Shown: positions 1,738 to 42,280 of the stretch, piece after piece
Layout of the letters: each line of letters starts with the position of its first letter
How positions within the stretch are numbered: position 1 is the stretch's first letter
From: a virus
Lineage: Duplodnaviria > Heunggongvirae > Uroviricota > Caudoviricetes
Strand: one strand, 5' to 3'
DNA length: 64,000 bases
IMG/VR virus record: IMGVR_UViG_3300033993_001993
Made by a program: the position numbers and the translations under genes
Notes under the pieces: model-generated
The model's database searches: none
Told to the model about the DNA's origin: nothing
Seen by the model: the letters and a program-made list of their open reading frames with translations, nothing else

Positions 1738-1787
1738 ATCTTTTTTTATTATAACTATAGGAAAAAATTAATTTTAATAAATTGTTT

Positions 1788-6946: not shown

Positions 6947-7696
6947 ATGGCTTTAGATCAAAAAAAATACAAGATTTTTACAAAACAAATATACAATCAT
7001 ATAATTGACGATCAAGGTGAAAACTATCTTTTTAATCCTTCAAAAATTTACAAAGAAATCACTGATGATGAATTTCTACAGATTTTAACCCAAAGAGTTA
7101 CAAACACAGATAAAATTAGATTATCATTTATGGTTTATCTATATGATTTGGAGGGTGATGTTGATCAATCGGTTAACGATGTTTTAAATCAATTTACTAT
7201 TATTGAAAGTATGATCTTTAGTGAATTGGGTAGTGGATATTTTACGTGTCCCGAATGTCAGGGTAATGGAGCGTTTGATTGCAATGAATGTGACACTAAT
7301 GGTGAATCCACTTGTGATCTTTGTGATGGATCGGGTGAAGATGAAACTGGTGATCCTTGTTATGGATGTAATGGTGATGGGGGAGTTACTTGCGGTAATT
7401 GTTCTGGAAGTGGGTTAGAAAATTGTGATGAATGTGGAGGTTCAGGTGAGGTTGAGAGTGAAGATTTGTTTTGGGAAAAGAAACTTCTAATAACGTACAC
7501 TTTAAATGATGAATTAAGAAATTTAAAGTTAGGGACTTCATTAAGTAGTGAAGAAAGTGACGAAATAGAGAGTCCACCATCAATTAATCAAATTAAAATA
7601 TTAGATTCTTACGTTCCTTACAACGATCCTTTTCAAGAATATGATATAGATGAAAAAAACCCAGATTCTATCTGGGTTGTTATTTCAGTTCGTTAA
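6947..7696 (+). CDS. DnaJ-type zinc-finger (CxxCxGxG repeat) protein
   Basis: Six consecutive CxxCxGxG units (CPECQGNG, CNECDTNG, CDLCDGSG, CYGCNGDG, CGNCSGSG, CDECGGSG) as in the DnaJ cysteine-rich domain. No J-domain HPD motif seen. Confidence 0.5.
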   Translation: MALDQKKYKIFTKQIYNHIIDDQGENYLFNPSKIYKEITDDEFLQILTQRVTNTDKIRLSFMVYLYDLEGDVDQSVNDVLNQFTIIESMIFSELGSGYFTCPECQGNGAFDCNECDTNGESTCDLCDGSGEDETGDPCYGCNGDGGVTCGNCSGSGLENCDECGGSGEVESEDLFWEKKLLITYTLNDELRNLKLGTSLSSEESDEIESPPSINQIKILDSYVPYNDPFQEYDIDEKNPDSIWVVISVR

Positions 7697-8205: not shown

Positions 8206-8703
8206 CTATTTGTTAATTAAATCTTTATCGGCAATCAAAACAAGGTCATCATTAAAGGATGGGTAAATTTCTTTTATTTTACCATATATCTCAGGATAGT
8301 CAGACCAAACTTTCACCCCCTCGTTCTCAGGACTATAATCATTATCAACTAAGTACTGAACAATAGTATTGTCTTCTATAGTGATAAATCCGTGGGCGAA
8401 GTATCTTGGTACATATATCTCATCACCTTCGTTCATCTCAAAGAAAAATACTTTATTATAATCTTCAGATACCCATCTAAGATCCACCACAAAGTCCAAT
8501 ATCTTACCACCAATGACTTTTATTAGTTTGGCTTGAGCGTACTCGTCCTTTTGAAAGTGCAACCCCCTTAACGTAAATTTCTGGGGGTTGACACTTACAT
8601 TACTTTGAACCCAATTCTTATCTAACTTAGTAAGATCTAACGGACTAAAGGTTCCTCTTTTATCCATAAAAATTCTATTCTCAACTAAATGTGCCTTTTC
8701 CAT
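8206..8703 (-). CDS. rmlC: dTDP-4-dehydrorhamnose 3,5-epimerase-like cupin (RmlC family)
   Basis: RGLHFQ...YAQAKLIKVIGGKILDFVVDLR and YFAHGF match the RmlC signature blocks. Confidence 0.7.
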   Translation of the reverse strand: MEKAHLVENRIFMDKRGTFSPLDLTKLDKNWVQSNVSVNPQKFTLRGLHFQKDEYAQAKLIKVIGGKILDFVVDLRWVSEDYNKVFFFEMNEGDEIYVPRYFAHGFITIEDNTIVQYLVDNDYSPENEGVKVWSDYPEIYGKIKEIYPSFNDDLVLIADKDLINK

Positions 8704-11307: not shown

Positions 11308-12276
11308 TTAATATGATACGGTTGTTTTATACCCAGGAGCGATCAGATAATAGTTTTGTGATCCCCCACTTACAGGTGAGTTTATTGTTATTGATGACAC
11401 ACCAGGTATTGTTGATCTTAGATCTGATGTATTTGTCGTTAATGTTGTGTATTGTGCGGTTGTATATAATCTGGATGGACTCATATTAATCCAACCCCCT
11501 AATAAACCATATCGTCTAAGATTAATATAATTTTGATCGGCAACGTTTATTCTCCCATCATAGTTCACATCATATCTGTGGTAATGAATACTTTTAATTG
11601 GTGTAACACCTAATATTAATTTAGAAACTTCTACCATATCCGTAGTTTGTAGTGTAGTTACCGGTGTTGGAGCATCATATTGTATGTACCACTCAACCGC
11701 AGGACTTGTCGGTTGTGAAAAGTTATAGTACCCCGATGAGTTAGTGTAAACCGTTTGATGTAACACCCAAGGGGTAAAAGTCACAATATATTCAAACTCC
11801 AAAACATATGGTAATGATGTGTTAGGTAAATCATTCCATCTACCTCCTCCGACGAATTGAATGTAGTCCTCGTTACCGGCATTGTTTGGTTCTCCACTAT
11901 TCCAATACGACCAAGAATAAGGTTCACCCGTAACCCATCTCCACACACCTTCATTGACCTCATCGGTTAATCCGATCCACCCATTTGGCCAAAGGCTGAA
12001 TAGGAAATTGTTTTCGGCTAATGATGTTGAGGTAACTAAATGTCCCCCCATATTAATACAGGCTTGTCTTGCGTCCGTCCAAGTCATTGACCCTGTTGAT
12101 CTATAATATGAGTGCCCATTAAAGTTTTGTTGATTGGTAAATCCATTCATTACCGGTGTTGTTCTTTTATACAACTTAACAGGTACATTAACCGCGCCTG
12201 TTCCATCCGCATTATAAATGTATCCCGAATATGTAAAGGTTTGAGTAAACCCCATAAACGGAATCACAAATAACAT
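11308..12276 (-). CDS. Secreted C-type lectin domain protein (EPN/WND carbohydrate-binding motifs)
   Basis: WIGLTDEVNEGVWRWVTGEPYSWSYWNSGEPNNAGNEDYIQFVGGGRWNDLPN is a canonical CTLD long-loop signature. Start moved to the internal Met, which gives signal peptide MLFVIPFMGFTQ and removes the overlap with the next gene. Confidence 0.65.
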   Translation of the reverse strand: MLFVIPFMGFTQTFTYSGYIYNADGTGAVNVPVKLYKRTTPVMNGFTNQQNFNGHSYYRSTGSMTWTDARQACINMGGHLVTSTSLAENNFLFSLWPNGWIGLTDEVNEGVWRWVTGEPYSWSYWNSGEPNNAGNEDYIQFVGGGRWNDLPNTSLPYVLEFEYIVTFTPWVLHQTVYTNSSGYYNFSQPTSPAVEWYIQYDAPTPVTTLQTTDMVEVSKLILGVTPIKSIHYHRYDVNYDGRINVADQNYINLRRYGLLGGWINMSPSRLYTTAQYTTLTTNTSDLRSTIPGVSSITINSPVSGGSQNYYLIAPGYKTTVSY

Positions 12277-12284
12277 TATTGTTA

Positions 12285-13901
12285 TTATTGTCCTACTAAC
12301 ATTCTTGCTCCACACGTTACCGTATAATTTAAAGCACTTGTTTTTAAATCCCAAGCACCACCTGCGTTTATGTTGAATTTGAACTTCTTTGTAATTTTAA
12401 TATTTGTACCAATACTTGGTAACATCACATAAGGAGATTTCAATACAACATCATTATAGTAACTAACATACGGAGCGTAAACAAATAAATTCATTAATTT
12501 AACATCTATTCGTTTACCTATCCTCATATCGTAAGTCCCCCCAACAATTAATGCAGTCCCCAAAAATGATTCTCTATAAACATTTCCATAAGATACCGTC
12601 CCCATATAAAGAAGTTTAAGAGATTTAGGTTTCTTAAACGTAAACATTTGTCCTATTGCTACCGTACCGTATAATGACTTATTACCTTCAAACCCAATGG
12701 TTAGTGTTCCAGAACCAATCACAATTGATTTAGGTCTAATAAAAGCATAGAACGCAGTTATATTAGGACCTCTAAGGGCTGAAGTATAGTCACCTAAAAC
12801 CCCCGAACTTCTTTTACCATCCCATCTCATTGCAGTATACCCACCTGTTACTTTTAACCCTGTATTCACTTCAGAATCTCTAAAGTTAAACCCAACAAAG
12901 TCACCACTAGCGACTATTGTGGGTTTACCACCTTCTTTACTAGTTGGGGTTGCCTTTACCGTTGTGGTTGCACCACCTGTTATATTTGTTTGTCCACCTT
13001 CTTCTTTTCCTGTTTCAGGAGTTTTATTTTCCTCAGGTTTATTACTTCCCGAACCAGTCCCGTTATTCCCTGCCCCACCATTAGACCCATTCCCAGGCTC
13101 ACTACTACTATTTCCATTTCCACTTGTTGTTTGATTGTTTATTGGTGTTTCAGTTGTTTGACCACCACCATTTGGTTCTGTTGTTTGAGTTCCCCCATTT
13201 ATAGTCGGGTTAGTCGATTGATTTCCAGTTTCATTTGATCCACCTTGAGTTGTAGTTCCTCCTGCTTGTGTTGGATTTTGAGTTCCAACATTTTGACTAG
13301 TGGTTCCATTTCCTCCGTTTGTACCTCCTTCATTTGTTCCAGAAGTGGTTGTACCTCCTTGAGTAGAGTTACCTGTTCCATTCGTTTGATTTTGAGTATT
13401 ATTGGTTGTGGTATTATTATTTGTAGTATTATTTCCACTTCCATTTTGGGATTTATTCCCCTTCTTATCGTTACCCTTTGAATTTCCATTCCCTGTATTA
13501 TTAATAGTAGTTACAGACCCACCTATTAAATTTGTGGATCCCCCCGCTAAATCTGAGATTGTGGATAATGAATTAAGAATTCCGATTACGTTTAATGCTG
13601 TTCCTTGGGTTATGTTAATTGCCGTACCCAAACCTATTATTTCAGAGCAAGGACTATTTGTTCCATATTGTGAAAATATGTTATTAGTCCAAGATTCAAA
13701 TGTCCCGTTTGTAAAATCGTTTTGACTAAACGATCCCGTTTCACCGTAGTATGAAACTATTACGTTTCCATTTATCGGTATGACTATAGTTTTAAGATTT
13801 CCCGTACAGGGATCAGAGTAACTATAATTGTAAGATTGCGCATTCAGGTTAAAGAACCCAAACACGCAATAAAACAATAATATGAATACATTTAGTTTCA
13901 A
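12285..13901 (-). CDS. Secreted protein with a roughly 230-aa N/T/G/S-rich low-complexity region and a C-terminal beta-barrel-like domain
   Basis: Signal peptide; GNGNSKGNDKKGNKSQNGSGNNTTNNNTTTNNTQNQTNGTGNSTQGG... tract; the C-terminal 200 aa have alternating hydrophobic beta-strand-like character. Confidence 0.4.
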   Translation of the reverse strand: MKLNVFILLFYCVFGFFNLNAQSYNYSYSDPCTGNLKTIVIPINGNVIVSYYGETGSFSQNDFTNGTFESWTNNIFSQYGTNSPCSEIIGLGTAINITQGTALNVIGILNSLSTISDLAGGSTNLIGGSVTTINNTGNGNSKGNDKKGNKSQNGSGNNTTNNNTTTNNTQNQTNGTGNSTQGGTTTSGTNEGGTNGGNGTTSQNVGTQNPTQAGGTTTQGGSNETGNQSTNPTINGGTQTTEPNGGGQTTETPINNQTTSGNGNSSSEPGNGSNGGAGNNGTGSGSNKPEENKTPETGKEEGGQTNITGGATTTVKATPTSKEGGKPTIVASGDFVGFNFRDSEVNTGLKVTGGYTAMRWDGKRSSGVLGDYTSALRGPNITAFYAFIRPKSIVIGSGTLTIGFEGNKSLYGTVAIGQMFTFKKPKSLKLLYMGTVSYGNVYRESFLGTALIVGGTYDMRIGKRIDVKLMNLFVYAPYVSYYNDVVLKSPYVMLPSIGTNIKITKKFKFNINAGGAWDLKTSALNYTVTCGARMLVGQ

Positions 13902-15309: not shown

Positions 15310-17220
15310 TTATTGTTTAATTATTCTTTCGAATGATGGAACTCCGTTCTCAACACTAAGTTTAACTATGTAAACCCCTGGTTCTAACTCACCTAAGTTT
15401 TTAGTGTAGTTATAAATCCCATCAGGTATTTGTGTGTCTAATATTGTAACTAACTTTCTACCAACTAAATCATATACCGATAGTGTTGCGTTTGTTGTCT
15501 CCTCAACTTTGAATGTGATTGTAACTTCGTCTTGATATGGATTAGGATATACTTCCATATTGTTATCGTTCAAGATGTTTCCACCTTCCATTTTTAATAC
15601 CTGAAGGATTCCGTTAGTTGGTGTTAAAGACAAATCACTTGAGTATGTAGTTCCAGCAAATTTTCTATTAGTGTACAAAGGACTTGCATCCCATAAGTTC
15701 TGTGGTTGTAACGCCAAGAATTGTATTATAACAACTTGATTACCATCTTTTAATGTGTTGTCATTATTTGTAGGATCAAACCCTCCCCATTCAATCTCGT
15801 TGTCGTTAGGGTTAACGTATGAAATCCATTTCATTGCCTCGGCTGATGATGTAATACCTTTAAATTGTAATAAGGTGTCATTGTATTTCAAACCAAATTG
15901 TAATGAACTTAATTCAATTCCATTTGTTATAACACTCACAGGAAGTTCAACTAAGTTACCAGCCTGAACTGAGATATTAGGAACATTTATTTCAATAGAT
16001 TGTGTTGGGAAATCGTATTCCACTTTAGTGTCAATAACATTGTATATTTGATTTTCTAAACCAGGTATTGGACCAACCACTACCTCAATAGGGGTTATAC
16101 GAGCCATATTATATCCTGTCCCATTTGCATCACCCGGTACCATCACATAATAAACAACTGAATCAGGTTGACCCGGTAGGATATCAAATGTAAAGTTAGT
16201 TACACCAGCAATTGATGAGGTGTAGTTAGTTGACGAACCATTAATTGTCGTATATTCCGTTGACGTAAAGAATTTAACATCTTTTGTATTGTTAGGCCAA
16301 GATGTAAATCTTCCTGAAACTCTACCAAACACACCCCAAACGTCTGAGATTGTTGTGTTGTTAGATCCGTTAACATCTGCAGTATAGTAATCAAACCCTG
16401 TCATTGTTCCGTTACCCAAAACCCATTGGTTTATTAATTGAGCATCTGTTGTTGATACAACATTACCAACACCCATAGTATCTCCTTTAACAGCTAAACG
16501 AACGTCCCAATATGTCGTATCCAATGGAACCGAAATATTAAAGTCTCCGTTATTATCCGTAACATAAACAGAATGTTGTGTCCAAGTTGATCCACCTGAT
16601 GGTTTTTTCTCTAACGCTAAAGTTAATGTTTTAGCTCCTGTACCAGTTACGTTTGTAAATGTTCCGTGGTAATCAAAGTTTACAGGTGTAAACACACCAC
16701 CATAGTTATGAACACTCAAAGTTGTATCCATACCATCTTGTTTTGCGGCGTATGGTGTAAACGTTTGAACTCCTGTCCAAGTTAAGTTACTTATTGTTGA
16801 TAAGTTATTAAATGTTGATGCTGGAGCGTGAGTAAATGTGATTAAGAATTTTTCACCGTTTGGTATAGTGTACGTAGAACTTGGACCAGTGTAACTTAAT
16901 GTCATTGTAATGTAACCATTCGCAGTGTTAGTCACATATTGAAGATCTAAGTTTGTTGTTGATCCTATCAAAGATACCGTTGCATTTGTAAATGCTACCT
17001 TATCATAAAATACTCTAAGCTGAACCCCAGCGAATTTTGTTAGGGTTGTATTTTGTAGTGTAATTTTGGCGGTTGTTGACCCTTGTGCTGAAGTCCCAAT
17101 CTGATATTGAGACGCAATGATACCCCACAAACCATTAGATGGTGCTGAAGGTACTTGTGATAACCCTATAAAAGGTAGTGATAATAACATTGTAAGGATT
17201 AACCCCTTAATTAATTTCAT
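15310..17220 (-). CDS. Large secreted/cell-surface protein with a T9SS C-terminal sorting domain
   Basis: N-terminal signal peptide; C-terminal about 80 aa (VYPNPYQDEVTITFKV...SVYDLVGRKLVTILD...GVYIVKLSVENG) match the Por secretion system CTD (TIGR04183-like). Confidence 0.6.
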   Translation of the reverse strand: MKLIKGLILTMLLSLPFIGLSQVPSAPSNGLWGIIASQYQIGTSAQGSTTAKITLQNTTLTKFAGVQLRVFYDKVAFTNATVSLIGSTTNLDLQYVTNTANGYITMTLSYTGPSSTYTIPNGEKFLITFTHAPASTFNNLSTISNLTWTGVQTFTPYAAKQDGMDTTLSVHNYGGVFTPVNFDYHGTFTNVTGTGAKTLTLALEKKPSGGSTWTQHSVYVTDNNGDFNISVPLDTTYWDVRLAVKGDTMGVGNVVSTTDAQLINQWVLGNGTMTGFDYYTADVNGSNNTTISDVWGVFGRVSGRFTSWPNNTKDVKFFTSTEYTTINGSSTNYTSSIAGVTNFTFDILPGQPDSVVYYVMVPGDANGTGYNMARITPIEVVVGPIPGLENQIYNVIDTKVEYDFPTQSIEINVPNISVQAGNLVELPVSVITNGIELSSLQFGLKYNDTLLQFKGITSSAEAMKWISYVNPNDNEIEWGGFDPTNNDNTLKDGNQVVIIQFLALQPQNLWDASPLYTNRKFAGTTYSSDLSLTPTNGILQVLKMEGGNILNDNNMEVYPNPYQDEVTITFKVEETTNATLSVYDLVGRKLVTILDTQIPDGIYNYTKNLGELEPGVYIVKLSVENGVPSFERIIKQ

Positions 17221-21281: not shown

Positions 21282-22529
21282 TTAATTTGATAAGGGTGCT
21301 TTAATACTTGGGTGTGATTGGTAGTTTTCCACCATAAAATCTGTTGGATTTAGGTGGTGGAATAGTGAATGATCCTCACTTAAAGATTTGTAGAACTCAT
21401 ACGTTTTCATGTGTTTTAAAAAGGGTAGTGGATATGGTTCTCTTGTTCTATTTGGAATATTATATTTAATGTAATCCTCATCTGTAATAGCCCGTAATTT
21501 ACTCATCTGTTGAGTTACTAATTCATATCTTTCATCTTCAGTCAAATCTCTACCAATCTGTTCTTTTGCTTGTTCGATATGGTTTGAATACAAATGAACA
21601 TCACCTAAATTACCAACCAATTCATCAGGAACCATATTCACTTCTTTCGCAATTATTTCCAATAACAAACCATAAGATGCAATGTTGAATGGTAATCCTA
21701 AGAATGTATCTACTGAACGTTGATTCCACATTAGAGAGATTGTTCGTTTAGGAATATTTGAATCATTTAATACAGATTCATCCTCAACAATTAATCTTCC
21801 ATTCCTATCATAGAAATCTTTCTTATTATCACTTTTATTTACAAGAAGTTTTGTTCTTTCTTCCAAACTCAACTCTCTTGTATAAACTTGAAATCCATAA
21901 TGACAAGGTGGAAGAACCATTTGGTCTAATTCTCCAACATTCCAAGCATTGACCATCAATCGTCTTGAGTCTGGGTTTGTTTTAAGGTCGTTGATTAGGT
22001 TTTGGATTTGGTCATTAACTCTAACATCTTCGTATTTAATAGGTACAAATGTATCCTCATCAAACTCAACAGCCTTTGTCGAAGTCCAACCTCTCCACTG
22101 CTTACCATAAATTGGGCCTAACTCACCCCACTTCTTAGCAAACTCATCATCTGTTTTAATTTTGTTGATGAATTCTTCTTGTGTCAATAACTGACCATCT
22201 TCATTGATGTAATCTTTTGGTGGATTAGATTTTTTTATAGGAAAACTATTCTTAAAGAACTTATAAGCGTCACCATCCCAAATATGACAACCGTTATCAA
22301 CAAGATATTTGATATTTGTATCACCACGAAGGAACCATAATAACTCGGTCACCATAGTTTTCCAAGCCATTTTCTTGGTTGTAAGTAAAGGAAACCCCTC
22401 ACTCATTTTATGACGGATCTGTCTACCGAATACTGAAATGGTACCAGTACCAGTACGATCACTTTTAGTACTCCCATTGTCCAAAATGTCTTGAAGTAAC
22501 TCTTGGTATTTTATGTCTAAATTATTCAT
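21282..22529 (-). CDS. thyA: Thymidylate synthase family (ThyA homolog with three insertions; Asn retained, so dUMP-specific)
   Basis: DRTGTGT, ELLWFLRGDTN, GPIYGKQWRGW, RRLMVNAWN, LPPCHYGFQVY (Cys nucleophile), RSVDTFLGLPFNIASYGLL, GDVHLYSNHIEQ and HPSIKAPL blocks are present. Insertions of about 55, 45 and 30 aa bring it to 415 aa. Confidence 0.85.
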   Translation of the reverse strand: MNNLDIKYQELLQDILDNGSTKSDRTGTGTISVFGRQIRHKMSEGFPLLTTKKMAWKTMVTELLWFLRGDTNIKYLVDNGCHIWDGDAYKFFKNSFPIKKSNPPKDYINEDGQLLTQEEFINKIKTDDEFAKKWGELGPIYGKQWRGWTSTKAVEFDEDTFVPIKYEDVRVNDQIQNLINDLKTNPDSRRLMVNAWNVGELDQMVLPPCHYGFQVYTRELSLEERTKLLVNKSDNKKDFYDRNGRLIVEDESVLNDSNIPKRTISLMWNQRSVDTFLGLPFNIASYGLLLEIIAKEVNMVPDELVGNLGDVHLYSNHIEQAKEQIGRDLTEDERYELVTQQMSKLRAITDEDYIKYNIPNRTREPYPLPFLKHMKTYEFYKSLSEDHSLFHHLNPTDFMVENYQSHPSIKAPLSN

Positions 22530-23528: not shown

Positions 23529-23737
23529 TATATCAAATCTTTTGATTTATTTTTCCATTCCTTCCAAGTGTTAAAATCTTTAAGGGACTCCATCTGATCT
23601 TCCATCCATAACATACCATCAATTATTCCTTGGTAATAACCAACTCTTTTTAACCTACCTTCTTCCCACACATCATCACGATAAGCGTTTTCAGTTAATC
23701 TTTCAGCAACTTCTTTAATTGTTTCCTTATTTTCCAT
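23528..23737 (-). CDS. Hypothetical small protein
   Basis: 69-aa ORF. Confidence 0.25.
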   Translation of the reverse strand: MENKETIKEVAERLTENAYRDDVWEEGRLKRVGYYQGIIDGMLWMEDQMESLKDFNTWKEWKNKSKDLI

Positions 23738-24044
23738 CTTTAATAATCCCTAATTCTTTTCTAAATTTTTTAATCTTAATCCTTGTTGCTTGGAATTCAT
23801 CTCCATCGTTTGCGCTATGACCATTCATAACCGCTTCAGTTATTTTCAATTCGTTATCAAGTATGAATGTCATTTTTTCCTGATTTGTTAATTCATACGG
23901 AACCACTTCCATTCTAATAAACTCTCGGATCATCGATCTAATTTTATCAATCTGTTCGTCTGGGTTTTTTTTGGACCCGTGAGACATAACAGATGTTTGG
24001 TAGATCGTCCTACTCAATTCCAATATTTTCTTATCAAATCCCAT
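23727..24044 (-). CDS. Hypothetical protein
   Basis: 105-aa ORF. Confidence 0.3.
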   Translation of the reverse strand: MGFDKKILELSRTIYQTSVMSHGSKKNPDEQIDKIRSMIREFIRMEVVPYELTNQEKMTFILDNELKITEAVMNGHSANDGDEFQATRIKIKKFRKELGIIKDGK

Positions 24045-25227
24045 CTTTATCCGTATTTCTAATTATACCTTCAACTCTACCCATATGATGGTAATGATCT
24101 TCAATCACTTCCTTAACATAATCTGTATGTGGTTTTGTCCAATTTTCTTGTCTATGATAGTAATCACCATAACCTTTAAGTTCTCCGCTTTTATCAGGTA
24201 ACTCTTTTATTTCTTTAACCCCATCTTTTACGACTTCATCAACAATACGTTCGGTATTGACCCATTCCTCCATTGGTTTAGCTACTTTAACGCCATTTTC
24301 AATAATGTCATCAACTCCGAGCTTAGTTCGTCGTAATGTACTATAAATTTCCTTTACCCCATTTTGGGTAGTATCTTCAACCGTTTTAAAGTGGTCAAAT
24401 TCAACCACTTTGGTGTCTTTCACACCATTTTGAATGGTATTTTCAACCGACCAGTTTATTTCCCAATCTATCTGACGGGTGTCTTTAACACCATTTTTAA
24501 TTGCGTTATCAATATTTTCAGTATTGTCCCATTGTCGTGGACCTATGTGTTTCACCCCATTTTCAATGGTATCTTTAACATATTCCTTCGCATTACACAC
24601 TCGACCGCTGGTTTCTCTCACCCCATTTTGAATTGTGTCTTCAACAATCCTTTCTTGTTTGAACCAATTCAGTTTGGTTTCTTTAACTCCATTTTGTATG
24701 GTGTCCTCAACACTATCTGTTCTTCCTGATTCCAATATATCGGTGTGTCTCACCCCATTTTGAATGGTATCTTCAACGACACGTATCATATCTAAGTCGA
24801 ACGACTCGGTGTGTTTCACCCCATTTTGAATGGTATCTTCAACTAACCTGCCATAACTCCCAAATGCTTCAAAGGTGTCTTTCACCCCATTTTGAATGGT
24901 ATCTTCAACTCTTTTTGTTACTCGGTGTTTGTAAGGTGAGGTATGTCCAATAGTTGGTTTATTCAAAAATCTTAACTCAAACCATTTGGATATTGTTTTG
25001 GTTTCATCCGCACATTTTTTTCCAATTAATTCTAATTCTGATTGGAAAGAGTTATAATTAAACCATAAAGTCCCTGACTCCGTAAATTCGGTTATCCATT
25101 TTTTTTCTTCGGTGAATATCAACCAAGTTGACCCTTGTTTTGTTATATACTTGTCAGATCCTTCAACCATTTGGTCAAACAACCTAAACATAAGTTTCTC
25201 TAATTTATTTCCTGATGGGTTTTTCAT
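24034..25227 (-). CDS. Tandem-repeat protein A: about 95-aa N-terminal domain + about 11 copies of a 22-aa repeat (core VEDTIQNGVKxT)
   Basis: Repeats read directly from the translation; paralog of the next gene (conserved N-terminus MKNPSGNKLEK...WLIFTEEKKW...). Confidence 0.6.
   Translation of the reverse strand: MKNPSGNKLEKLMFRLFDQMVEGSDKYITKQGSTWLIFTEEKKWITEFTESGTLWFNYNSFQSELELIGKKCADETKTISKWFELRFLNKPTIGHTSPYKHRVTKRVEDTIQNGVKDTFEAFGSYGRLVEDTIQNGVKHTESFDLDMIRVVEDTIQNGVRHTDILESGRTDSVEDTIQNGVKETKLNWFKQERIVEDTIQNGVRETSGRVCNAKEYVKDTIENGVKHIGPRQWDNTENIDNAIKNGVKDTRQIDWEINWSVENTIQNGVKDTKVVEFDHFKTVEDTTQNGVKEIYSTLRRTKLGVDDIIENGVKVAKPMEEWVNTERIVDEVVKDGVKEIKELPDKSGELKGYGDYYHRQENWTKPHTDYVKEVIEDHYHHMGRVEGIIRNTDKDGI
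24370..24915 (-). repeat. In-frame tandem 66-bp coding repeat array (about 36-bp conserved core + about 30-bp variable spacer)
   Basis: Near-identical units such as ttcaccccattttgaatggtatcttcaac recur with a 66-bp period (e.g. at 24746, 24812, 24878). Confidence 0.7.
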
Positions 25228-25230
25228 CTT

Positions 25231-26493
25231 CTATATTTTTTCACCATTTTCAATAATATCCTCAACCGTAGTATCACCATAATAACCAAGATCAAAAGCA
25301 AAATCAACGTACTTCACCCCATTTTCAATAATATCCTCAACACTATTATCGCCACAATTATAAGCAAAACAGACGGACTTCACTCCATTTTGGATAATGT
25401 CGTTAATGCACTCAAGTTCTATCCCCAAAGGTCTATCTGAAGTTTTTTTCACCCCATTTTCAATGGTATCTTCAACTTCCTTACGACGATGGTATCTGTT
25501 GGTTGTGGTCTCCTTCACCCCATTTTGAATTACCCTTTTACTATTAACCTTAAATATTTCACTTACTAAACTAAGTTCACTTACTTCTTTCACTTCTTTA
25601 ACACCATTTTTAATGGCGTCTTCAACACGATACGATGGATCTAAACGCTTTAATGATGTGTGCTTTACCCCATTTTGAATGGTGTCTTCAACTTGTAATT
25701 TGTTTTCACCAAAAGCACGTTGGGTGTCTTTCACCCCATTTTTAATGGTGTCTTTAACCAGTCCGATATCACGGTTCCAATCAATTTCTTGCGTATGTAT
25801 AACTCCATTTTGAACCGCATCTTCAACGAATGCCGGATGTCGTAGAGTACCTTTAGTTTGTTTCACACCATTTTGAATGGTATCTTCAACCAACAAAAGG
25901 ACATCTTGATCGTGTTGTATGGTGTGTTTCACCCCATTTTGAATAGTGTCTTCAATTATTGTGTTGACCTTTTTGAAAGAAAAATGGGTGTGTTTCACCC
26001 CATTTTGAATGGTATCTTCAACTGTTCTCGTATAGTGATAATTTCTTCCGGTGTTCTTCACCCCATTTTTAATGGCGTCTTCAACACGATACGATGGGTC
26101 TAATAGGTTTAAAGAAAAATGGGTGTGTTTCACCCAATTTTGAATAGTGTCTTCAACACCTTCCCATTGACCACGATTTGGATAAAAGGTGTGTTTTACC
26201 CCATCCTGGATGGTTTTTTCAACCTTAGGTTTAAGGAATCTTGTTTCAAACCACTTTTGGATAAGGTCTTTGTTTGTAACACAATCTAAACCAACAAGTT
26301 CCATTTCATTCTTAAAGAATTGGTAGTTATACCACAGAGTTTGTGTGTCCGTGTATTCAACAACCCACTTCATATCATTGGTAAAGATTAACCATAAACT
26401 TTTGTTATGGTTATATATATCGGCGTTTTCGATAGATTTATCGAAGATCTCGAATAAAATTTTTTCTAATTTATTTCCTGTTGGGTTAATCAT
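25231..26493 (-). CDS. Tandem-repeat protein B: same N-terminal domain + about 15 copies of the 22-aa repeat
   Basis: MINPTGNKLEK...WLIFTNDMKW N-terminus followed by VEDTIQNGVKHT-type repeats. Separated from its paralog by 3 nt. Confidence 0.6.
   Translation of the reverse strand: MINPTGNKLEKILFEIFDKSIENADIYNHNKSLWLIFTNDMKWVVEYTDTQTLWYNYQFFKNEMELVGLDCVTNKDLIQKWFETRFLKPKVEKTIQDGVKHTFYPNRGQWEGVEDTIQNWVKHTHFSLNLLDPSYRVEDAIKNGVKNTGRNYHYTRTVEDTIQNGVKHTHFSFKKVNTIIEDTIQNGVKHTIQHDQDVLLLVEDTIQNGVKQTKGTLRHPAFVEDAVQNGVIHTQEIDWNRDIGLVKDTIKNGVKDTQRAFGENKLQVEDTIQNGVKHTSLKRLDPSYRVEDAIKNGVKEVKEVSELSLVSEIFKVNSKRVIQNGVKETTTNRYHRRKEVEDTIENGVKKTSDRPLGIELECINDIIQNGVKSVCFAYNCGDNSVEDIIENGVKYVDFAFDLGYYGDTTVEDIIENGEKI
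25240..26235 (-). repeat. Second in-frame tandem 66-bp coding repeat array (about 15 units)
   Basis: Same core DNA motif (caccccattttgaatggt...tcttcaac) recurring throughout the paralog. Confidence 0.7.
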
Positions 26494-26514: not shown

Positions 26515-26946
26515 TCATAAACTTATTGGTAATAATTTTTCGGGTAGATATTTCTCAGGACATACAATAACGAATGAGGTAACTAAATACCACTCACTAC
26601 CAAGTAATTGGTTTGTACTACGATTATAATAATCTCGATAAGTTATATAAAGGTATGGTTTATTAATTGTGTTATCAATTTTAATTCTCGCATCTTTAAA
26701 ATCAAACTCAATAAGACGATAGAACCCATTCACTTTACCCATCAATTTAATTTTAGTGGTAACTTCCTCACTATAAGACGCCGATCCCATCACTAAAAAA
26801 TAACTAGCGGAACCCTCTTTCGTTACCTCATCCGTTTTAACTAATTGTCGTAAATAGATATTTTCCGTTCTACCTCTTTTTTTGACAGGCATATCACAAG
26901 AAAACAATCCAAATACCATTAAGGTAATAAATAATAAATTTTTCAT
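26515..26946 (-). CDS. Lipoprotein
   Basis: The internal Met gives MKNLLFITLMVFGLFSCD (signal peptide + lipobox) and removes the overlap with the upstream gene. Confidence 0.35.
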   Translation of the reverse strand: MKNLLFITLMVFGLFSCDMPVKKRGRTENIYLRQLVKTDEVTKEGSASYFLVMGSASYSEEVTTKIKLMGKVNGFYRLIEFDFKDARIKIDNTINKPYLYITYRDYYNRSTNQLLGSEWYLVTSFVIVCPEKYLPEKLLPISL

Positions 26947-26947
26947 A

Positions 26948-27235
26948 TTAATATTCTTCTTTTTCATTAACCTCAATTACCCTTTGTTTGTTTCGTTCCA
27001 AACAATATTTACAATTCCCTTTGTGTGTTAATGCCGGTTCACGATTATCCATTCCATTAACTAAAATGTATTCACACCCATCAATTTCTTGAATGTGGTA
27101 CACATCCATATCGGTATATTCAAACTCAAGACCACCAATATCTTCCACCTCAGTTGTTTTTTCGACGGTTACTTCAATTTCTCTTTCACAAGACACCAAT
27201 AGGAATAATCCCATTAAAAATACTAACTTTCTCAT
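26948..27235 (-). CDS. Lipoprotein
   Basis: The internal Met gives MRKLVFLMGLFLLVSCERE. Confidence 0.35.
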   Translation of the reverse strand: MRKLVFLMGLFLLVSCEREIEVTVEKTTEVEDIGGLEFEYTDMDVYHIQEIDGCEYILVNGMDNREPALTHKGNCKYCLERNKQRVIEVNEKEEY

Positions 27236-27236
27236 T

Positions 27237-27554
27237 TTAATAACCCTCTCCTGTTTCATTTATAAATTCAATACCATTTTCATTTGCAAACTCTGATACC
27301 AGTTGTTCAACAACATCTTTATCCATACGACCGTAGTCAACCGAATAACCGTAAACTCTAATACCAAGATCAGACCATCTAACTCTACCACCACCACGAA
27401 TTCTCCATTCCTTTAGTTCTGGATCAATTCCTCTGAATCTATTTGCAACATCTTCGTGGAACTCTCCTGGCCCTGAACGAAATACAAACTCACCGTCTTT
27501 TTCCAAGATTACGCATTTGCGAACCGCATCTTTTTCTATAATAACTTTTTCCAT
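27237..27554 (-). CDS. Hypothetical protein
   Basis: 105-aa ORF. Confidence 0.3.
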   Translation of the reverse strand: MEKVIIEKDAVRKCVILEKDGEFVFRSGPGEFHEDVANRFRGIDPELKEWRIRGGGRVRWSDLGIRVYGYSVDYGRMDKDVVEQLVSEFANENGIEFINETGEGY

Positions 27555-27601: not shown

Positions 27602-27967
27602 CTAATTCTTTCGTTCAAAGTAAAAAACCACAGGATTTTGTTTGACTTCAATAAGTCCGTAATCACGAGCTAATCTGAAATTAGGAGTATCTCTCTCCAT
27701 TCTATCGATAGAGTTTTCGACTATGGTTCTAAACATCTCTAAACTGAATGTTGATTTCCATTTATTACAACGAGAACAGGATGGATTTAAATTGTCCATC
27801 TCATCTGTTCCTCGTTCAACACCCCAAGCCTCAAGTGTCTCAACTTTATCATTACGATATAATGGTTTTATGTGATCCACTTGCATCTGTTTGAATGTTA
27901 TTTCAATTCCACAATAAGCGCAATGACCTGAACACTTATCATAAACTTCTTGTCTGTTGATTTTCAT
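27602..27967 (-). CDS. HNH homing endonuclease
   Basis: CSGHCAYCG...VDHIKP...NLNPSCSRCNKWK gives the HNH core with both Cys pairs. Confidence 0.8.
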   Translation of the reverse strand: MKINRQEVYDKCSGHCAYCGIEITFKQMQVDHIKPLYRNDKVETLEAWGVERGTDEMDNLNPSCSRCNKWKSTFSLEMFRTIVENSIDRMERDTPNFRLARDYGLIEVKQNPVVFYFERKN

Positions 27968-27974
27968 TATATTA

Positions 27975-28703
27975 TTAATTTAGATATTTCCAAATAAAAC
28001 CTCCAGATGTTTTTTGTCTATTTGATAGGCAATCTTTAATTCCTTTTATATTTGTTTTTCTCATTGCCTCGCTTATACTTGGAAAAATTTGGATAATCTC
28101 ATTAGTTAATTTGTCAATTTGTATAATTTCCTTTTTTGGTGTTCCAGCATTTGCGGGTCTATTTTTGTAAAAAAAACTTTTTTCACCAGAAATATCTGGA
28201 CGTTTTTTACCTTTTTTAGATTCAGAAATTTTAGGTTGTTTTTTTCCTGTTTTATTCTTTATTATTTTTTCCCTAACCCCCTCAATATTGTTTGGGTTGT
28301 TTGTTAACATTCTTTGTCTTAACTTTTCCTTGTACTCATCACTATGTATTTTTTTACCTAACATGGATGTTTTTATTTTATTTTTAGTTTCTTCAGATAA
28401 ATAACCACTTTTAGTGTCTGTTTTGGTTTTTATTAAATTCAACCCTTCCTCTAAAACGTTATAGTAATCTTGCCAATACCTCTCTCGATCATTCAAGTTT
28501 TCCAACAAACATTCTTCAATAATTTCAAATTTGTGACTATCAATACCATATTTTTTTAGTGAATTCAGTAATTTTGTTTGAGATGGGCAATTTAATTTAA
28601 TATATTTTTTAAACCTTTCTTCAATATTAACACTTTGTCCAATATAGACTTTATTTTTTGGGTTGGTAATTTTGTATATTCCTATCATACCCATAAATAT
28701 CAC
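27975..28703 (-). CDS. GIY-YIG homing endonuclease with a C-terminal NUMOD-like DNA-binding motif
   Basis: GIYKITNPKNKVYIGQSVNIEERFKKY (GIY...YIG...R...E...N); C-terminal SISEAMRKTNIKGIKDCLSNRQKTSGGFIWKY resembles Seg/I-TevI-type DNA-binding modules. Confidence 0.85.
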   Translation of the reverse strand: MIFMGMIGIYKITNPKNKVYIGQSVNIEERFKKYIKLNCPSQTKLLNSLKKYGIDSHKFEIIEECLLENLNDRERYWQDYYNVLEEGLNLIKTKTDTKSGYLSEETKNKIKTSMLGKKIHSDEYKEKLRQRMLTNNPNNIEGVREKIIKNKTGKKQPKISESKKGKKRPDISGEKSFFYKNRPANAGTPKKEIIQIDKLTNEIIQIFPSISEAMRKTNIKGIKDCLSNRQKTSGGFIWKYLN

Positions 28704-37863: not shown

Positions 37864-38451
37864 TTAATCCCCATTAGTTAAAAAATTAATAATCTTTTCT
37901 TTAACGCCACATTGTTTAATACCTTCACTTGATTTTGGGGTTAAAACGAAATTACTAATTGCCCAAGCATCTTTCCAAGGTTCACCATTCTTACCCATAT
38001 TAAGATCGTCAACTGAAACCCAGTGTGTAACCTTAGGATGATCGTGTAGGTATTGTTGAATCTCAACGGTTCGTGTTTGTTCTAACTCCCATTGTGGTGA
38101 CCATATAAATAAATCACTATGAACAGTACAATTCTGAATGTTTGGAGTTAATGCGATTGGTCGTTTGATGATACCTTGACTTTCGTAGTAGTCACCAAGT
38201 TCTTCAAGTGTTGCGTGTAGTTTCCAATCTGAACTTACAACAATTTCACATCCTGTTTCTTCGATAATCTCATTCAATAACTTAATTGCCTTCTTATCGA
38301 AATCATCAAAACGATACTCAACAGGAGCTTCCTTTAAATTTGGTGATGAATCAGGATTCGCTGAACGATATTTCGCCCATTTTTTCTTTCGTCCACCCCA
38401 ATTATTAGAGAGACAAATTACACCATCGTTATCTAAGAAGAGTACTTTCAT
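37864..38451 (-). CDS. HAD-superfamily phosphatase-like protein
   Basis: N-terminal FLDNDGVI (DxDG motif I of HAD hydrolases). Confidence 0.4.
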   Translation of the reverse strand: MKVLFLDNDGVICLSNNWGGRKKKWAKYRSANPDSSPNLKEAPVEYRFDDFDKKAIKLLNEIIEETGCEIVVSSDWKLHATLEELGDYYESQGIIKRPIALTPNIQNCTVHSDLFIWSPQWELEQTRTVEIQQYLHDHPKVTHWVSVDDLNMGKNGEPWKDAWAISNFVLTPKSSEGIKQCGVKEKIINFLTNGD

Positions 38452-38644: not shown

Positions 38645-39640
38645 TTAGTTTCTTATAACTTTTTCAGTTGATCCGTCACTATATCGGATGATATGTAATT
38701 CACCTGATTCAGGTTTACATTCTCTACCTAACATATCTGTGATTTTAACGATTGTCTTCCCATATTGAGTTAACTCTTCAATTTCTGCAAATCCTATACT
38801 CTCAGTTTGATTGATAACAATAGTTTTATAATCCATTGATTTAGTATAACAATACACAACTAATTGGAAGTTATAACATCCTGTTGAGTCGATCATTGGG
38901 TAGTTCACCATATATGTTTGGTATGTACCTGTTGTATCAATAACATACCACACACATAAAATACTGTCTAAACCACTATTAATAAGACCATTTATTGTCA
39001 TATATGCTGTGTCGATTGTGTTAAAATTTATATTACAATCTTCTATGGTTGTGGTGAAATTACCAATTGGACTATTACAAGTACCTGTTGAATTTAACAC
39101 TAAAGTATCTCCGAAATTGGTTGATTGTGTTACGATTGAATCACATAATGTTGTATTACATCCGTTAGCATCCATTACATAACAACAATACCCCCCTACA
39201 GATAAATTATTGATCGTCTGAAGCATATTACCATTACTCCACTGATATGTGTATGGTGCCGTTCCGTTAATAACATTTGCTGTCATTGATCCATCATTAA
39301 TTGTAGAATCAATTGTTGTGATATATCCACCGAAGTTAAAACACGGATTGAATGTACCTGATGTTATGTTGAACGTAAGTGTTGTTGGGGTATTATTAAC
39401 AACGAATGAAACTGTGTAAGTTCCAGGACAAAGACTATCAACATAGTATCCTCCTGATTGGATCACCGCGCCAAATCCATTCCAATTAATCACCGATAAG
39501 TTAACACTCGTATCTAATACTGCAGTACCATCACAGATGTTAGGACCACTAGTAGGTGAGGTATAAACCATTGTTTGGGACATTACCCCAAAAGAAATAA
39601 CACTAATAAGTGTCAGTAATAATAATTTTAATTTTTTCAT
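38645..39640 (-). CDS. Secreted SprB-repeat protein with a T9SS-type C-terminal domain
   Basis: Signal peptide; INDGSMTANVINGTAPYTYQWSNGN matches the SprB repeat consensus (DGS...GG..PYTY.W); C-terminal KITDMLGRE...IIRYSDGSTEKV is CTD-like. Confidence 0.5.
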   Translation of the reverse strand: MKKLKLLLLTLISVISFGVMSQTMVYTSPTSGPNICDGTAVLDTSVNLSVINWNGFGAVIQSGGYYVDSLCPGTYTVSFVVNNTPTTLTFNITSGTFNPCFNFGGYITTIDSTINDGSMTANVINGTAPYTYQWSNGNMLQTINNLSVGGYCCYVMDANGCNTTLCDSIVTQSTNFGDTLVLNSTGTCNSPIGNFTTTIEDCNINFNTIDTAYMTINGLINSGLDSILCVWYVIDTTGTYQTYMVNYPMIDSTGCYNFQLVVYCYTKSMDYKTIVINQTESIGFAEIEELTQYGKTIVKITDMLGRECKPESGELHIIRYSDGSTEKVIRN

Positions 39641-39718: not shown

Positions 39719-42280
39719 TTAAAACTTATATTTAACCGATAGTGAAACCGTTTGACCAAAAGTAATCTCTTGCCACCTATTATCTTCTGTGTCATATCTA
39801 TGATTACCATTTAGGTCTTGGAAATATATAAGTTTTTGTGCTAATATATCTTTTAAGTTTAATTTTAATTCAACCTTTTTAAATGTTTTTGACAATTGGA
39901 AATCGATCACATTTCTTCCGTTTTCCCAAACGCTAGGTTCCTGTTGATTACCAACAATATAGATTCTAGGTCCGATAACATTATAGGATAATGTAACATT
40001 AAAATCTTCTTTTTTGTTCGTGTAAAATAACCCTGAATTAATGATGTATGGTGATTGTCCTTGTAGTGGTCTGTTACCACCAGCACCTATAACCTCATCC
40101 ATATTTACCACTGACTTAATAATTGAAATATTACTATAGATTGTAAGTTGGTTCCATAATTTATGGTTTTCAACTTTAGATAAAAACCCTAATTTAAATC
40201 TGAATTCTAACTCACCACCAAAACTTTGTGATCTTTCAATGTTTGAGAAGTATAACTCAGGTGCTCCTGACGTTCCGGTCCTATTTATAGTTTCAATAGG
40301 GTTATTAAAGTTTTTGTAAAACCCTGACAAACTTATAATCTGACCACTACCAGGGTAAATCTCATATCTAATATCACAATTAGTTATCTTAGTTCTTTTT
40401 AAATATGGATTACCTGATGTGATATTATCCAATACGAAGTTATAGAAGTTAAATGGCGCTAATTCTCTAAACTCAGGTCTAGATACCGTTTGACTAATAC
40501 TTCCTCTTAACTTCATTTTTTTATTGAAGTTATAAATTACATTAACAGAAGGTAATAAATCAATTACCGTTGTGTCAATGTTTCTATTTAAGTTACTCCC
40601 AAACTCAATGTAGTTAAAGTTTTGATTGTAAGATTCTAATCTAACTCCACCCGCAAATCTCCACTTGTTCAATTTGTAATCAACCATAGTGTAGAAAGAA
40701 TTTAAGAATGAATTTGCATCATAACTATCATCAACTTTGGTTGCCTCATCTAATTTAAAACCACCCTGACCATTACTTAAAAGACCCATATTCTCAGTGG
40801 AGAATATTTGATCCATAGGTAATAAAAGTAAGTCACTATTAAAGGTACTACCGTTTGGTTTATATTGTGAAAACCCAAAATTTCTTGATTGAAAGTCTTT
40901 CATTCTAAATTGATTCCACCCACCGATCTTGACTGAATTAACATCTTTAAATGGAATTGTTAGATCATATCTTGCACTTATAATTTTTTCATCTGATTCA
41001 GACCAAAACATATTACCAGCAGCAGTTGGTATTGTACCGTTCTGTTGAATAACTGCAACATATTGTTCTGTTGGGTCATCCTCATTTAAAGAGTATTTTC
41101 TATACACTACTCTCCTTAGGTTCGGAATGTCTCTTTTAACATTACTATAACCAACACTCCAATTAAATTTATTTTCTTTTATCGTGTGAATCCCAAGTAA
41201 TTGATTAGTTAAAAAGTTATTTTGAGTATACCAAAAATTCGTAGATTTCTCCCATTGTCTTGGATCACTATCTAACTCTCTAACACCCTTTCTAACATTA
41301 ACCTTATCTTCAGAATTTACAGAATAAATATTCTTAAACTTGATGGTGTTGTTTTCATTAATCTTATAAACCAAATTTAACATACCACTATTTAAAACAC
41401 TCTGAGTAAATACAGAATCATTTAGTTCCATTTTCTTAACCACACCCGTTGCTTGTTCCTCAAACTCTCTTCTAACAATATTATTATAGTTGAAGTTGTT
41501 TTGGTAGTTATACGTTAAAATGAAACTTAACGTTTGTTTCTTTTTAAATTTAATGTTTCTACTTAAGGTATATTGAATAGATGGGTTAGGTAACGCGAGC
41601 CTATCTTTAGTTGACCAAGTAAAGTCCATTAGTTTTGCAACCTCAGACCTTTCTTGTTTTGATAAGTTTTGGAAATCAATAGTTCCATTAATATTTGGTA
41701 ACCCTCTAGATTCAACACTATATGTTTTAAAATCCCTAAATGTTGCAATTGTATTATGTGATCCACCAATCTGTATTGTATGAGTATTCTCATTTTTAGG
41801 TTCGGAAGTGTTAATATCAATTACGCCTCCAGCAAACTCACCAGGTAAATCAGGACTAGCAGTCTTCATCACCATTAGATTGTCAATCATATTTGATGGG
41901 AATATATCAAACGAAAAAGATCGCTTATCGGATTCCGAACTTGGTAAAGGTAGCCCGTTCAATAATGCGAAGTTGTATCTATCATTAAGACCCCTCACAA
42001 CCACGAACTTATTATCCACAACACTTATCCCACTAACACGTTTAAAAACATCAGAGACCTTAGAGTCTGGTGTTCTCTTAAAGGTCTCTGCGTTAATTCC
42101 GTCTACAGATGTAATACTATTTCTTTGTAGTTTTACAAGTTCTGTTGTTGATTCTTTATTAATTTTAAAGGTAACCGTAACCCCCTCAACATTTCTAATT
42201 GTATCTTTTTTAAATGTCTCAGATGGTTGAGCCAATAATTGTATTGGTAGTACCAATAATAACGTCAATAAAAATTTCAT
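39719..42280 (-). CDS. TonB-dependent outer-membrane receptor (plug + 22-strand barrel)
   Basis: Signal peptide; plug-domain blocks (VVVRGLNDRYNFALLNGLPLPSSE, EFAGGVIDINT); 853 aa; C-terminal ...LSVKYKF ending in an aromatic residue. Confidence 0.75.
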   Translation of the reverse strand: MKFLLTLLLVLPIQLLAQPSETFKKDTIRNVEGVTVTFKINKESTTELVKLQRNSITSVDGINAETFKRTPDSKVSDVFKRVSGISVVDNKFVVVRGLNDRYNFALLNGLPLPSSESDKRSFSFDIFPSNMIDNLMVMKTASPDLPGEFAGGVIDINTSEPKNENTHTIQIGGSHNTIATFRDFKTYSVESRGLPNINGTIDFQNLSKQERSEVAKLMDFTWSTKDRLALPNPSIQYTLSRNIKFKKKQTLSFILTYNYQNNFNYNNIVRREFEEQATGVVKKMELNDSVFTQSVLNSGMLNLVYKINENNTIKFKNIYSVNSEDKVNVRKGVRELDSDPRQWEKSTNFWYTQNNFLTNQLLGIHTIKENKFNWSVGYSNVKRDIPNLRRVVYRKYSLNEDDPTEQYVAVIQQNGTIPTAAGNMFWSESDEKIISARYDLTIPFKDVNSVKIGGWNQFRMKDFQSRNFGFSQYKPNGSTFNSDLLLLPMDQIFSTENMGLLSNGQGGFKLDEATKVDDSYDANSFLNSFYTMVDYKLNKWRFAGGVRLESYNQNFNYIEFGSNLNRNIDTTVIDLLPSVNVIYNFNKKMKLRGSISQTVSRPEFRELAPFNFYNFVLDNITSGNPYLKRTKITNCDIRYEIYPGSGQIISLSGFYKNFNNPIETINRTGTSGAPELYFSNIERSQSFGGELEFRFKLGFLSKVENHKLWNQLTIYSNISIIKSVVNMDEVIGAGGNRPLQGQSPYIINSGLFYTNKKEDFNVTLSYNVIGPRIYIVGNQQEPSVWENGRNVIDFQLSKTFKKVELKLNLKDILAQKLIYFQDLNGNHRYDTEDNRWQEITFGQTVSLSVKYKF

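Follow-up and report, generated by a model that had tools for sequence, protein, structure and literature searches.

A tandem phage gene pair from a large, apparently phage-restricted family of 22-residue repeat proteins with cassette-like variable segments

The stretch of DNA analysed here, hereafter the window, comprises 64,000 nt of a large, uncultured freshwater phage of the class Caudoviricetes (IMG/VR record IMGVR_UViG_3300033993_001993). An earlier note, written from the letters alone, had described two tandem paralogous genes in it, each joining a common N-terminal domain (N-domain) to an array of 22-residue repeats. Both open reading frames (ORFs) are intact, lie exactly where that note had placed them and are separated by 3 nt. 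The genes, here called A and B, have the following parts:

24034..25227, minus strand: gene A, 397 aa; N-domain, 11 repeat units and a kept C-terminal tail ('A-type')
24943..25227, minus strand: N-domain of A, aa 1-95, predicted α1-β4-α2-α3
24208..24909, minus strand: repeat array of A, aa 107-340, 11 units
24034..24207, minus strand: C-terminal tail of A, KELPDKSGELKGYGDYYHRQENWTKPHTDYVKEVIEDHYHHMGRVEGIIRNTDKDGI; kept in A-type proteins, with a low predicted local distance difference test score (pLDDT)
25231..26493, minus strand: gene B, 420 aa; N-domain and 15 repeat units, without the C-terminal tail ('B-type')
26224..26493, minus strand: N-domain of B, aa 1-90, which aligns with that of A
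25234..26223, minus strand: repeat array of B, aa 91-420, 15 units

A and B are about 50% identical over the N-terminal ~90 residues and 37% identical over the whole protein, and with 11 and 15 units they are the tandem paralogues that had been proposed. Residues Y27, S33, W35, I37, F38, T39, W44, E47, L54, W55, F61, W82 and E84 are invariant in the N-domain of A, and the N-domain of B is 59-75% identical to its counterparts at 22 IMG/VR loci. No N-domain paralogue besides the repeat genes was found in the window and the related loci. The B array holds 14 units found by a regular expression and one degenerate unit ('RVIQNGVKET'), and the gene stops in the middle of a core (...VEDIIENGEKI*), ...NGEKI being the B-type ending. 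A-type proteins carry the tail instead (consensus ...TKPHTEYVKEVIEDSYNHxGRVEGVIRNTDKDGI), whose clusters are present in 61 and 33 of 122 family proteins; in A its last 12 residues are a degenerate core, and the DNA at 24044-24078 resembles the core. The order B-type then A-type recurs at ten of the related loci (L004 and L016-L024), while other phages carry one copy, and this recurrence of the pair in many related phages bears out the suggestion that it reflects diversification. A third family gene lies on the 43-kb contig IMGVR_UViG_3300042467_001553 (loci L011 and L018), where a 4-unit copy sits ~11 kb from a B-type and A-type pair; family members can thus lie apart from one another as well as side by side.

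Parsing of the A and B translations gives a repeat period of 22 residues (range 21-25), with length changes always in whole codons. Each unit consists of a core, V-E-D-T-I-Q-N-G-V-K-x-T, followed by ~10 residues that vary from unit to unit. Entropy was computed from 708 distinct 22-residue units of 266 family members, with a maximum of 4.32 bits. Positions 1-10 and 12 lie at 0.02-1.75 bits (G8 invariant, V9 92%, I5 and K10 89%, T12 85%, N7 83%), position 11 at 3.0 bits (E/H/D) and positions 13-22 at 3.9-4.17 bits, near the maximum and with no hydrophobic periodicity. The combination of an invariant core and a hypervariable block, noted before in the two genes, is confirmed. At the DNA level the unit is a ~36-nt repeat plus a ~30-nt spacer. 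The + strand 27-mer CACCCCATTTTGAATGGTATCTTCAAC occurs in 14 copies at ≤3 mismatches, all within A and B (0 expected from 100 shuffles), and the 35-nt core in 23 copies, mostly at a spacing of 66 nt, which confirms the tandem repeat; Tandem Repeats Finder scores no more than 2.6 copies, since the 30-nt spacers do not resemble one another. Inside gene B, the segments 25598..25656 and 26057..26115 (a spacer end plus core, …LDPSYR-VEDAIKNGVK) are 88% identical in DNA, an example of unit-level duplication within one array.

A and B are real protein-coding genes. Their reading frames are open across all 26 units, and the core codons vary synonymously (GAT/GAC, GGG/GGT/GGA/GGC, GTG/GTT/GTA, AAA/AAG, ACC/ACT/ACA). 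The assembly collection lists the identical 397-residue protein A in 59 of its blocks, and the 24 blocks examined have it on 15 contigs; its presence on at least 15 contigs means that it is no assembly artefact and is stable within its lineage. With intact frames, synonymous core variation and >2,000 homologues, the concern that the repeats might be non-coding artefacts is not borne out. We regard it as extremely improbable that the array is a non-coding CRISPR-like array, an artefact of assembly or a row of dodecin-like flavin-binding modules. The 66-nt period, with its ~36-nt repeat and ~30-nt unique spacer, does fit CRISPR geometry, and as in CRISPR arrays the spacers of related arrays are related in an all-or-none manner, with subsets in common in the same order. 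The array here is nevertheless translated and frame-preserving, with all length changes in multiples of 3 and mostly synonymous core differences; it appears to be under protein-level selection, its repeats are imperfect and lack leader polarity, and the N-domain and C-terminal tail are conserved. The artefact reading is further opposed by the independent assembly of the identical sequence across many samples.

Database searches likewise speak against CRISPR. Rfam gave no CRISPR-DR match and nothing else at E ≤ 1 other than one chance small-RNA match, and no cas genes or reverse-transcriptase domains were found in Pfam scans of 52 window ORFs. Among those 52 are all the complete window ORFs of ≥180 aa, whereas some 15 ORFs between 120 and 165 aa long and the truncated ORF at 63428-64000 fall outside them. 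Protospacer-style searches carry no weight either way: two 24-nt spacer cores had no exact match in IMG/VR, and the window spacers gave nothing significant by blastp-short against 2,269 non-family ORFs of the window and the loci. The dodecin identity draws on a Pfam Dodecin match to B (24.5 bits versus a cut-off of 22.5) and on the 'dodecin' label that some homologues carry at the Joint Genome Institute (JGI). The match (PF07311) is partial and summed over repeats, and no single stretch passes; the best one in B spans no more than a third or so of the profile (positions 16-37 of 64), there is no complete β-α-β-β domain, and the NCBIfam equivalog NF043052 scores 20.7 bits versus a cut-off of 75. 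A helix motif of dodecin (xEDAIxNAVxxA) resembles the 12-residue core enough for the score to build up over the repeats. JGI labels of homologues are also mutually inconsistent ('dodecin', 'predicted peroxiredoxin', 'predicted transcriptional regulator'), and we read the dodecin label as an annotation artefact.

The main new result is the cassette-wise organisation of spacer diversity. Clustering of 1,337 units from the 122 proteins gave 280 spacer types, 145 of them singletons. Most spacers of the window's A and B are unique within this set; units at the C-terminal end and a number of longer inserts recur in many proteins, for example HVEDGDWLDQDER and EVKEISNISLMSEIFKVN, which occur in 78 of the 122. 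Pairwise identity of the 1,035 canonical spacers is bimodal, with either 0-4 or 7-10 of 10 residues in common and a trough at 5-6. An exact twin in another protein exists for 678 of these spacers, and 195 have background similarity only. Four loci with near-identical N-domains (L020, L021, L023 and L024) have arrays that differ by whole-unit insertion, deletion and replacement and by one tandem duplication, and the units common to them keep their sequence and order. Among collinear protein pairs, the variable loops are 97.6% identical versus 91.7% for the N-domains, an estimate biased by the choice of pairs. Homologous cassettes have a proportion of synonymous differences (pS) of 0.116 and of nonsynonymous differences (pN) of 0.024, a pN/pS of about 0.21 that is biased by the choice of cassettes. 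Both estimates argue against free drift. These sequence comparisons show that spacers diversify by the swapping of discrete cassettes, each of them conserved, rather than by mutating freely unit by unit. The view that spacers are different in every unit is nearly correct in the window, although many are identical word for word across phages; likewise, 'hypervariable' describes the high entropy well but not its apparent origin. The simplest mechanism would be recombination between the near-identical 36-nt cores, either unequal or between genomes.

The same data allow a plainer reading, in which the proteins are spacers or scaffolds, the loops have no specific function and the cassettes are a by-product of unequal recombination between cores. 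Near-maximal entropy and freely variable copy number would fit, as would the make-up of the variable blocks, whose composition is near that of random codons with weak codon-position bias. Versus the window proteome, these blocks are enriched in R, H and S. We consider it unlikely, given that individual cassettes are nearly unchanged across phages with diverged N-domains, that pN/pS is below 1 and that intermediates between identical and unrelated cassettes are rare, a gap that neutral drift should fill. A diversity-generating retroelement was also considered and rejected: the scanned ORFs contain no reverse-transcriptase domain, the spacers are identical or unrelated and not point-mutated, and the identical array was recovered from many samples.

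AlphaFold was run on protein A with an alignment of 82 family members. The N-domain is predicted confidently, without a convincing known fold, and the repeat array at pLDDT 70-80. In 7 of the 11 units the core forms strand-NG-strand, a hairpin with N-G at the tight turn. An invariant Gly, a preceding Asn and flanking β-branched residues fit a type I' hairpin turn, and the N-G of the core is surrounded by β-branched V/T/I/V/T. A β-hairpin core with an exposed variable loop is moderately supported by the model, the loops being read as exposed because positions 13-22 combine near-maximal entropy with the lack of hydrophobic periodicity. Mutual information between unit positions, in which hairpin contacts were sought, gave a signal dominated by cassette relatedness. 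Foldseek found no significant match in the PDB (E ≥ 0.08, template modelling score about 0.2), the best matches being phage tailspikes.

Several likenesses drawn by the earlier note are not supported by these results. In place of its solenoid, the model gives a β-hairpin meander, predicted with moderate confidence, with uncertain overall packing and without a significant fold match in the PDB, and the likeness to transcription activator-like effectors (TALE), pentatricopeptide repeats or pentapeptide repeats finds no support in Pfam at E ≤ 1, in the 22-residue period or in PDB structures. Nucleic-acid recognition is unlikely and a TALE-like code for DNA was rejected, the repeat region being acidic; a DNA mimic was rejected as well, since the acidity is merely moderate and hypervariable loops are a poor fit. 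Leucine-rich repeat (LRR) variable lymphocyte receptors (VLRs) and TALEs do likewise combine an invariant scaffold, variable recognition positions and reassortable modules, but they have few variable positions per unit, whereas here 10 contiguous residues (45% of the unit) vary and no LRR or TALE consensus is present. The analogy with hypervariable repeat binders of the LRR/TALE type is also discussed in PMC10392669. Choline-binding repeats, clostridial combined repetitive oligopeptides (CROPs; CW_binding_1) and OspA resemble the architecture predicted here, of ~20-22-residue hairpin + loop units in an elongated, K/E/T/V-rich array. The aromatic/Gly signature of CW_binding_1 is missing here, with no Pfam match at E ≤ 1 and no conserved aromatic residue in the core; CROP-type families are secreted binders of cell walls or carbohydrates with conserved ligand residues and without a maximal-entropy block of 10 residues, and the fold compared with them here is a moderate-confidence prediction.

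The repeat was thought to lie outside the described families, and the searches agree. Pfam, PHROGs and NCBIfam contain no true match for the repeat family, a PDB sequence search gave only weak designed-armadillo noise, and 50,697 GenBank phage records hold no DNA or protein relative, tblastn returning one spurious tape-measure match. The repeat motif was not found in full-text literature, where searches for similar repeat proteins gave nothing specific. Metagenomes, in contrast, are rich in relatives: a search with protein A returned >2,034 proteins at E ≤ 1e-3 (best 1e-126, typically 40-50% identity over full length), all of them metagenomic and without meaningful names. A profile of the N-domain alone matched 371 representatives of 50%-identity clusters, 268 of them at E ≤ 1e-10. 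Among the 150 matches listed, the N-domain is always N-terminal and repeats come next in most full-length proteins; the repeat copies per family protein number 4-21. A search of 185,579 species genomes gave a single match, on a 3.4-kb contig of a metagenome-assembled genome, and the homologues sit in syntenic phage contigs of 90-165 kb. The family hence appears to be all but missing from cellular genomes and to be confined to large uncultured phages; it shows no defining feature of any known family and, on the evidence of these searches, is new, large and phage-restricted.

These phages probably infect Bacteroidota, because the window contains a TonB-dependent receptor, sorting domains of the type IX secretion system (T9SS) and a SprB repeat, and because relatives of one neighbouring protein occur in Prevotella Lak, Cellulophaga and Tenacibaculum phages. 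'Moraphages' are aquatic jumbo phages of 200-307 kb with predicted Bacteroidota hosts that encode a glutamine synthetase (PMC12619734). The source phage may belong to the same or a related lineage, by analogy of size, predicted host and gene content: a glutamine-synthetase-like gene and a protein with a DnaJ-type Cys-rich domain, both present in the window, are also features of moraphages. The paper on them does not mention this repeat family.

The other features of the window that bear on the two genes, or that were recognised around them, are:

23727..24044, minus strand: 105-aa ORF, helical-looking
26515..26976 and 26948..27259, minus strand: two lipoprotein-like small ORFs with N-termini …LFSCD and …LVSCE
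27237..27554, minus strand: homologue of Janus/Ocnus (PHPT1 phosphohistidine-phosphatase family), 105 aa; PF05005, E 2.3e-6, 28.1 bits versus a cut-off of 23
27602..27967, minus strand: HNH endonuclease-type gene (Pfam)
27975..28703, minus strand: 242-aa ORF outside the Pfam scans, with a GIY-YIG-like N-terminus (IYKITN…YIGQS)
59750..60337, plus strand: GIY-YIG ORF (Pfam match)
21282..22529, minus strand: thymidylate synthase, 415 aa
20457..21149, minus strand: homologue of Acb3, an inhibitor of the cyclic oligonucleotide-based antiphage signalling system (CBASS), 230 aa; PF25187, E 1.6e-30, 107 bits versus a cut-off of 27
46643..47764, minus strand: RNA ligase (PHA02142 OB-fold + RNA_ligase)
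37864..38451, minus strand: HAD domain of 'Swiss Army Knife' RNA-repair proteins
39719..42280, 42286..43848, 15310..17220, 11308..12354 and 38645..39640, minus strand: host-surface-type genes (Pfam)
56311..57456, minus strand: glutamine-synthetase-like gene
6947..7696, plus strand: protein with a DnaJ-type Cys-rich domain
991..2345 and 8206..8703, minus strand: glycosyltransferase genes (families 2 and 9-like) and a dTDP-4-dehydrorhamnose 3,5-epimerase

The 105-aa ORF at 23727..24044 begins within gene A, its start overlapping the 3' end of that gene by 11 nt. It has 350 homologues at 73-97% identity, some on contigs of up to 311 kb, and no match in Pfam, PHROGs or NCBIfam. Where a related locus continues beyond the final repeat gene, an ORF of this type mostly comes next (L001-L003, L009, L014-L017 and L020-L024), the counterpart at L002 being in the same position and 75% identical, and conserved position suggests that it is a probable operon partner of the repeat genes. 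On the other side, L016 and L018-L024 have a PHPT1-like gene immediately upstream of the B-type gene, whereas L001-L003 lack one; here the two lipoprotein-like ORFs separate the PHPT1-like gene from gene B, which is not the case in the relatives. Its association with the repeat genes is one of gene context. A gene of the PHPT1 family is unusual in a phage, and a link between it and repeat position 11 (mostly E/H/D) would be pure speculation.

The gene for the Acb3 homologue lies downstream of the repeat genes at a distance of 3 kb and adjoins that for thymidylate synthase. The latter has a large insertion, because a Pfam profile of 266 positions is stretched over residues 7-351. Locus L001 has two thymidylate synthase genes. 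The homing-endonuclease-type genes near the locus are possible drivers of local mosaicism. Five genes make up the host-surface-type set. One encodes a complete TonB-dependent receptor (Plug + barrel) and two encode proteins ending in T9SS sorting domains, one of which also has a cohesin domain; the others encode a C-type lectin containing a dockerin-like segment and a SprB-repeat protein. RNA ligase and the 'Swiss Army Knife' HAD gene together suggest a phage capability for RNA repair, and the glycosyltransferases and epimerase suggest phage-encoded sugar modification.

For the function of A and B we favour, with a probability of roughly one in three (about 0.35), an intracellular role in the conflict between host and phage, in which the two proteins would be multivalent binders and would act along with the 105-aa partner. 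The proposed protein would consist of a compact N-terminal α/β domain followed by its 4-21 units, in each of which the core is most likely a β-hairpin turning at N-G. Successive hairpins would probably align into an elongated sheet, with the 10 unconstrained residues of each unit forming loops along one sheet edge. The near-identical 36-nt cores would act as recombination sites at which units are gained, lost, duplicated and replaced, so that a pool of loop cassettes may be reshuffled between paralogues and between phages. The product would be a non-secreted multivalent binder, made in the infected cell and acting with the probably co-transcribed 105-aa protein, with a set of loops that fits host factors which themselves vary, for instance proteins of defence or of surface biogenesis. 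An intracellular, non-structural protein is favoured because A and B lack a signal peptide, because their repeat regions are acidic and hydrophilic (isoelectric point 4.7-5.7) and because their recognised neighbours are non-structural or accessory genes, including Acb3. More tentatively, the loops may form a community-wide pool of hundreds of 10-residue recognition loops that are mixed between paralogues and between co-infecting jumbo phages, the cores being kept partly as recombination handles, to give a protein-level, heritable and combinatorial repertoire against variable host defence or surface factors.

Several points weigh against this proposal. Function and binding partner have no homology-based support, and the 'anti-defence neighbourhood' is an argument from proximity in a region densely packed with accessory genes, where unrecognised structural genes could be nearby because many PHROG and Pfam searches of the neighbours were blank. 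The AlphaFold model of the whole protein reaches only pLDDT 59 and a predicted template modelling score of 0.51. Its strands run through N-G in four central units, which makes the hairpin register uncertain, and the Pfam dodecin model puts the core on a helix; the core could instead be a short Gly-capped helix, as that alignment implies. The selection tests on cassettes are biased by the selection of homologous cassettes, and the recombination model does not account for the origin of novel cassettes.

A virion fibre, whisker or decoration protein would use the same parts differently: the N-domain would be the anchor, the hairpins a shaft, possibly a trimeric β-spiral, and the loops would bind variable glycans or proteins of the host surface; exchange of cassettes would then alter the host range, much as hypervariable segments do in T-even gp38. 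The unit order of strand, tight Gly turn, strand and variable loop resembles in its logic the triple β-spirals of adenovirus and reovirus, and the copy number of 4-21 is variable, as in fibre shafts. The tailspikes at the head of the Foldseek matches and the surface-type genes in the window (C-type lectin, cohesin/T9SS-tail, SprB) point the same way, although those matches are insignificant. In the gp38 literature (PMC3157838), short conserved motifs are described as both scaffold and recombination points for the mosaic exchange of hypervariable segments, a description that matches the exchange seen here. These adhesins of the T2/T6 type, built from glycine-rich motifs (GRMs) and hypervariable segments (HVSs), follow the same evolutionary logic as our cassettes. 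They are unrelated to A and B in sequence, with no PHROG or Pfam match, and have few GRM/HVS units at a fibre tip, encoded in a tail-fibre module, whereas here 4-21 regular 22-residue units stand behind a distinct N-domain in an apparently non-structural region. The scanned window ORFs include no recognisable virion gene, and no structural-module gene was recognised nearby; in every relative examined the repeat genes are flanked by thymidylate synthase, homing endonucleases and other early-type genes. With no PHROG tail or fibre family matched and no cultured phage relative, we hold a virion protein to be possible but rather doubtful.

A different use of the repeats would be a multi-core precursor polyprotein, in which the N-domain is a leader, the 12-mers are flanks and a protease frees 10-mer peptides, modified or not. 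The resemblance to precursors of ribosomally synthesised and post-translationally modified peptides (RiPPs) such as cyanobactin PatE is plain: a leader or leader-like domain, repeated conserved flanks with near-random cores, variable blocks without positional constraint, and independent cassettes reshuffled between strains. The E, D, T and K of the core are also the side chains used in the ester and amide cross-links of graspetides. Within a few kb of the repeat genes there is also a syntenic protease gene of the ClpP family; ClpP-like proteases of large phages are, however, usually head-maturation enzymes. A scan for maturation enzymes (proteases, cyclases, ATP-grasp, YcaO, radical SAM) gave only this distant ClpP homologue and the glutamine-synthetase-like gene. 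Neither the Pfam scans of the 52 window ORFs nor the gene tables of L001-L003 contain a RiPP tailoring enzyme or a subtilisin/PatA/PatG-type protease, and the sole conserved neighbours are the two 105-aa proteins. A and B are moreover much larger than RiPP precursors and have a folded N-domain of ~90 aa, AlphaFold predicts the array to be folded, and the 12-residue conserved part is longer and more β-structured than known recognition sequences. A peptide precursor hence seems improbable.

By analogy, the family would conceptually join the proteins that combine a scaffold with hypervariable segments, among them gp38 GRM/HVS adhesins, LRR/VLR proteins and hairpin repeats such as CROPs. It is a large unannotated family in abundant uncultured large phages, which annotation pipelines mislabel as dodecin, peroxiredoxin or transcriptional regulator, and it offers an unusually clean natural repeat scaffold with exchangeable loops, in which a 12-residue staple alternates with a 10-residue block and exchange is cassette-wise. 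The cassette inventory could mark fine-scale population structure and recombination of phages in lakes. Should the proteins prove to be fibres or peptide precursors, the family would still be a new one, structural or biosynthetic. If it is the loops that determine binding, the family would open a new way to study how jumbo phages keep up with variable hosts or defences and would be a candidate scaffold for engineered multivalent binders. If a combinatorial loop repertoire does exist, it would resemble CRISPR arrays or VLR assembly in its dynamics, with the difference that the virus would encode and use it.

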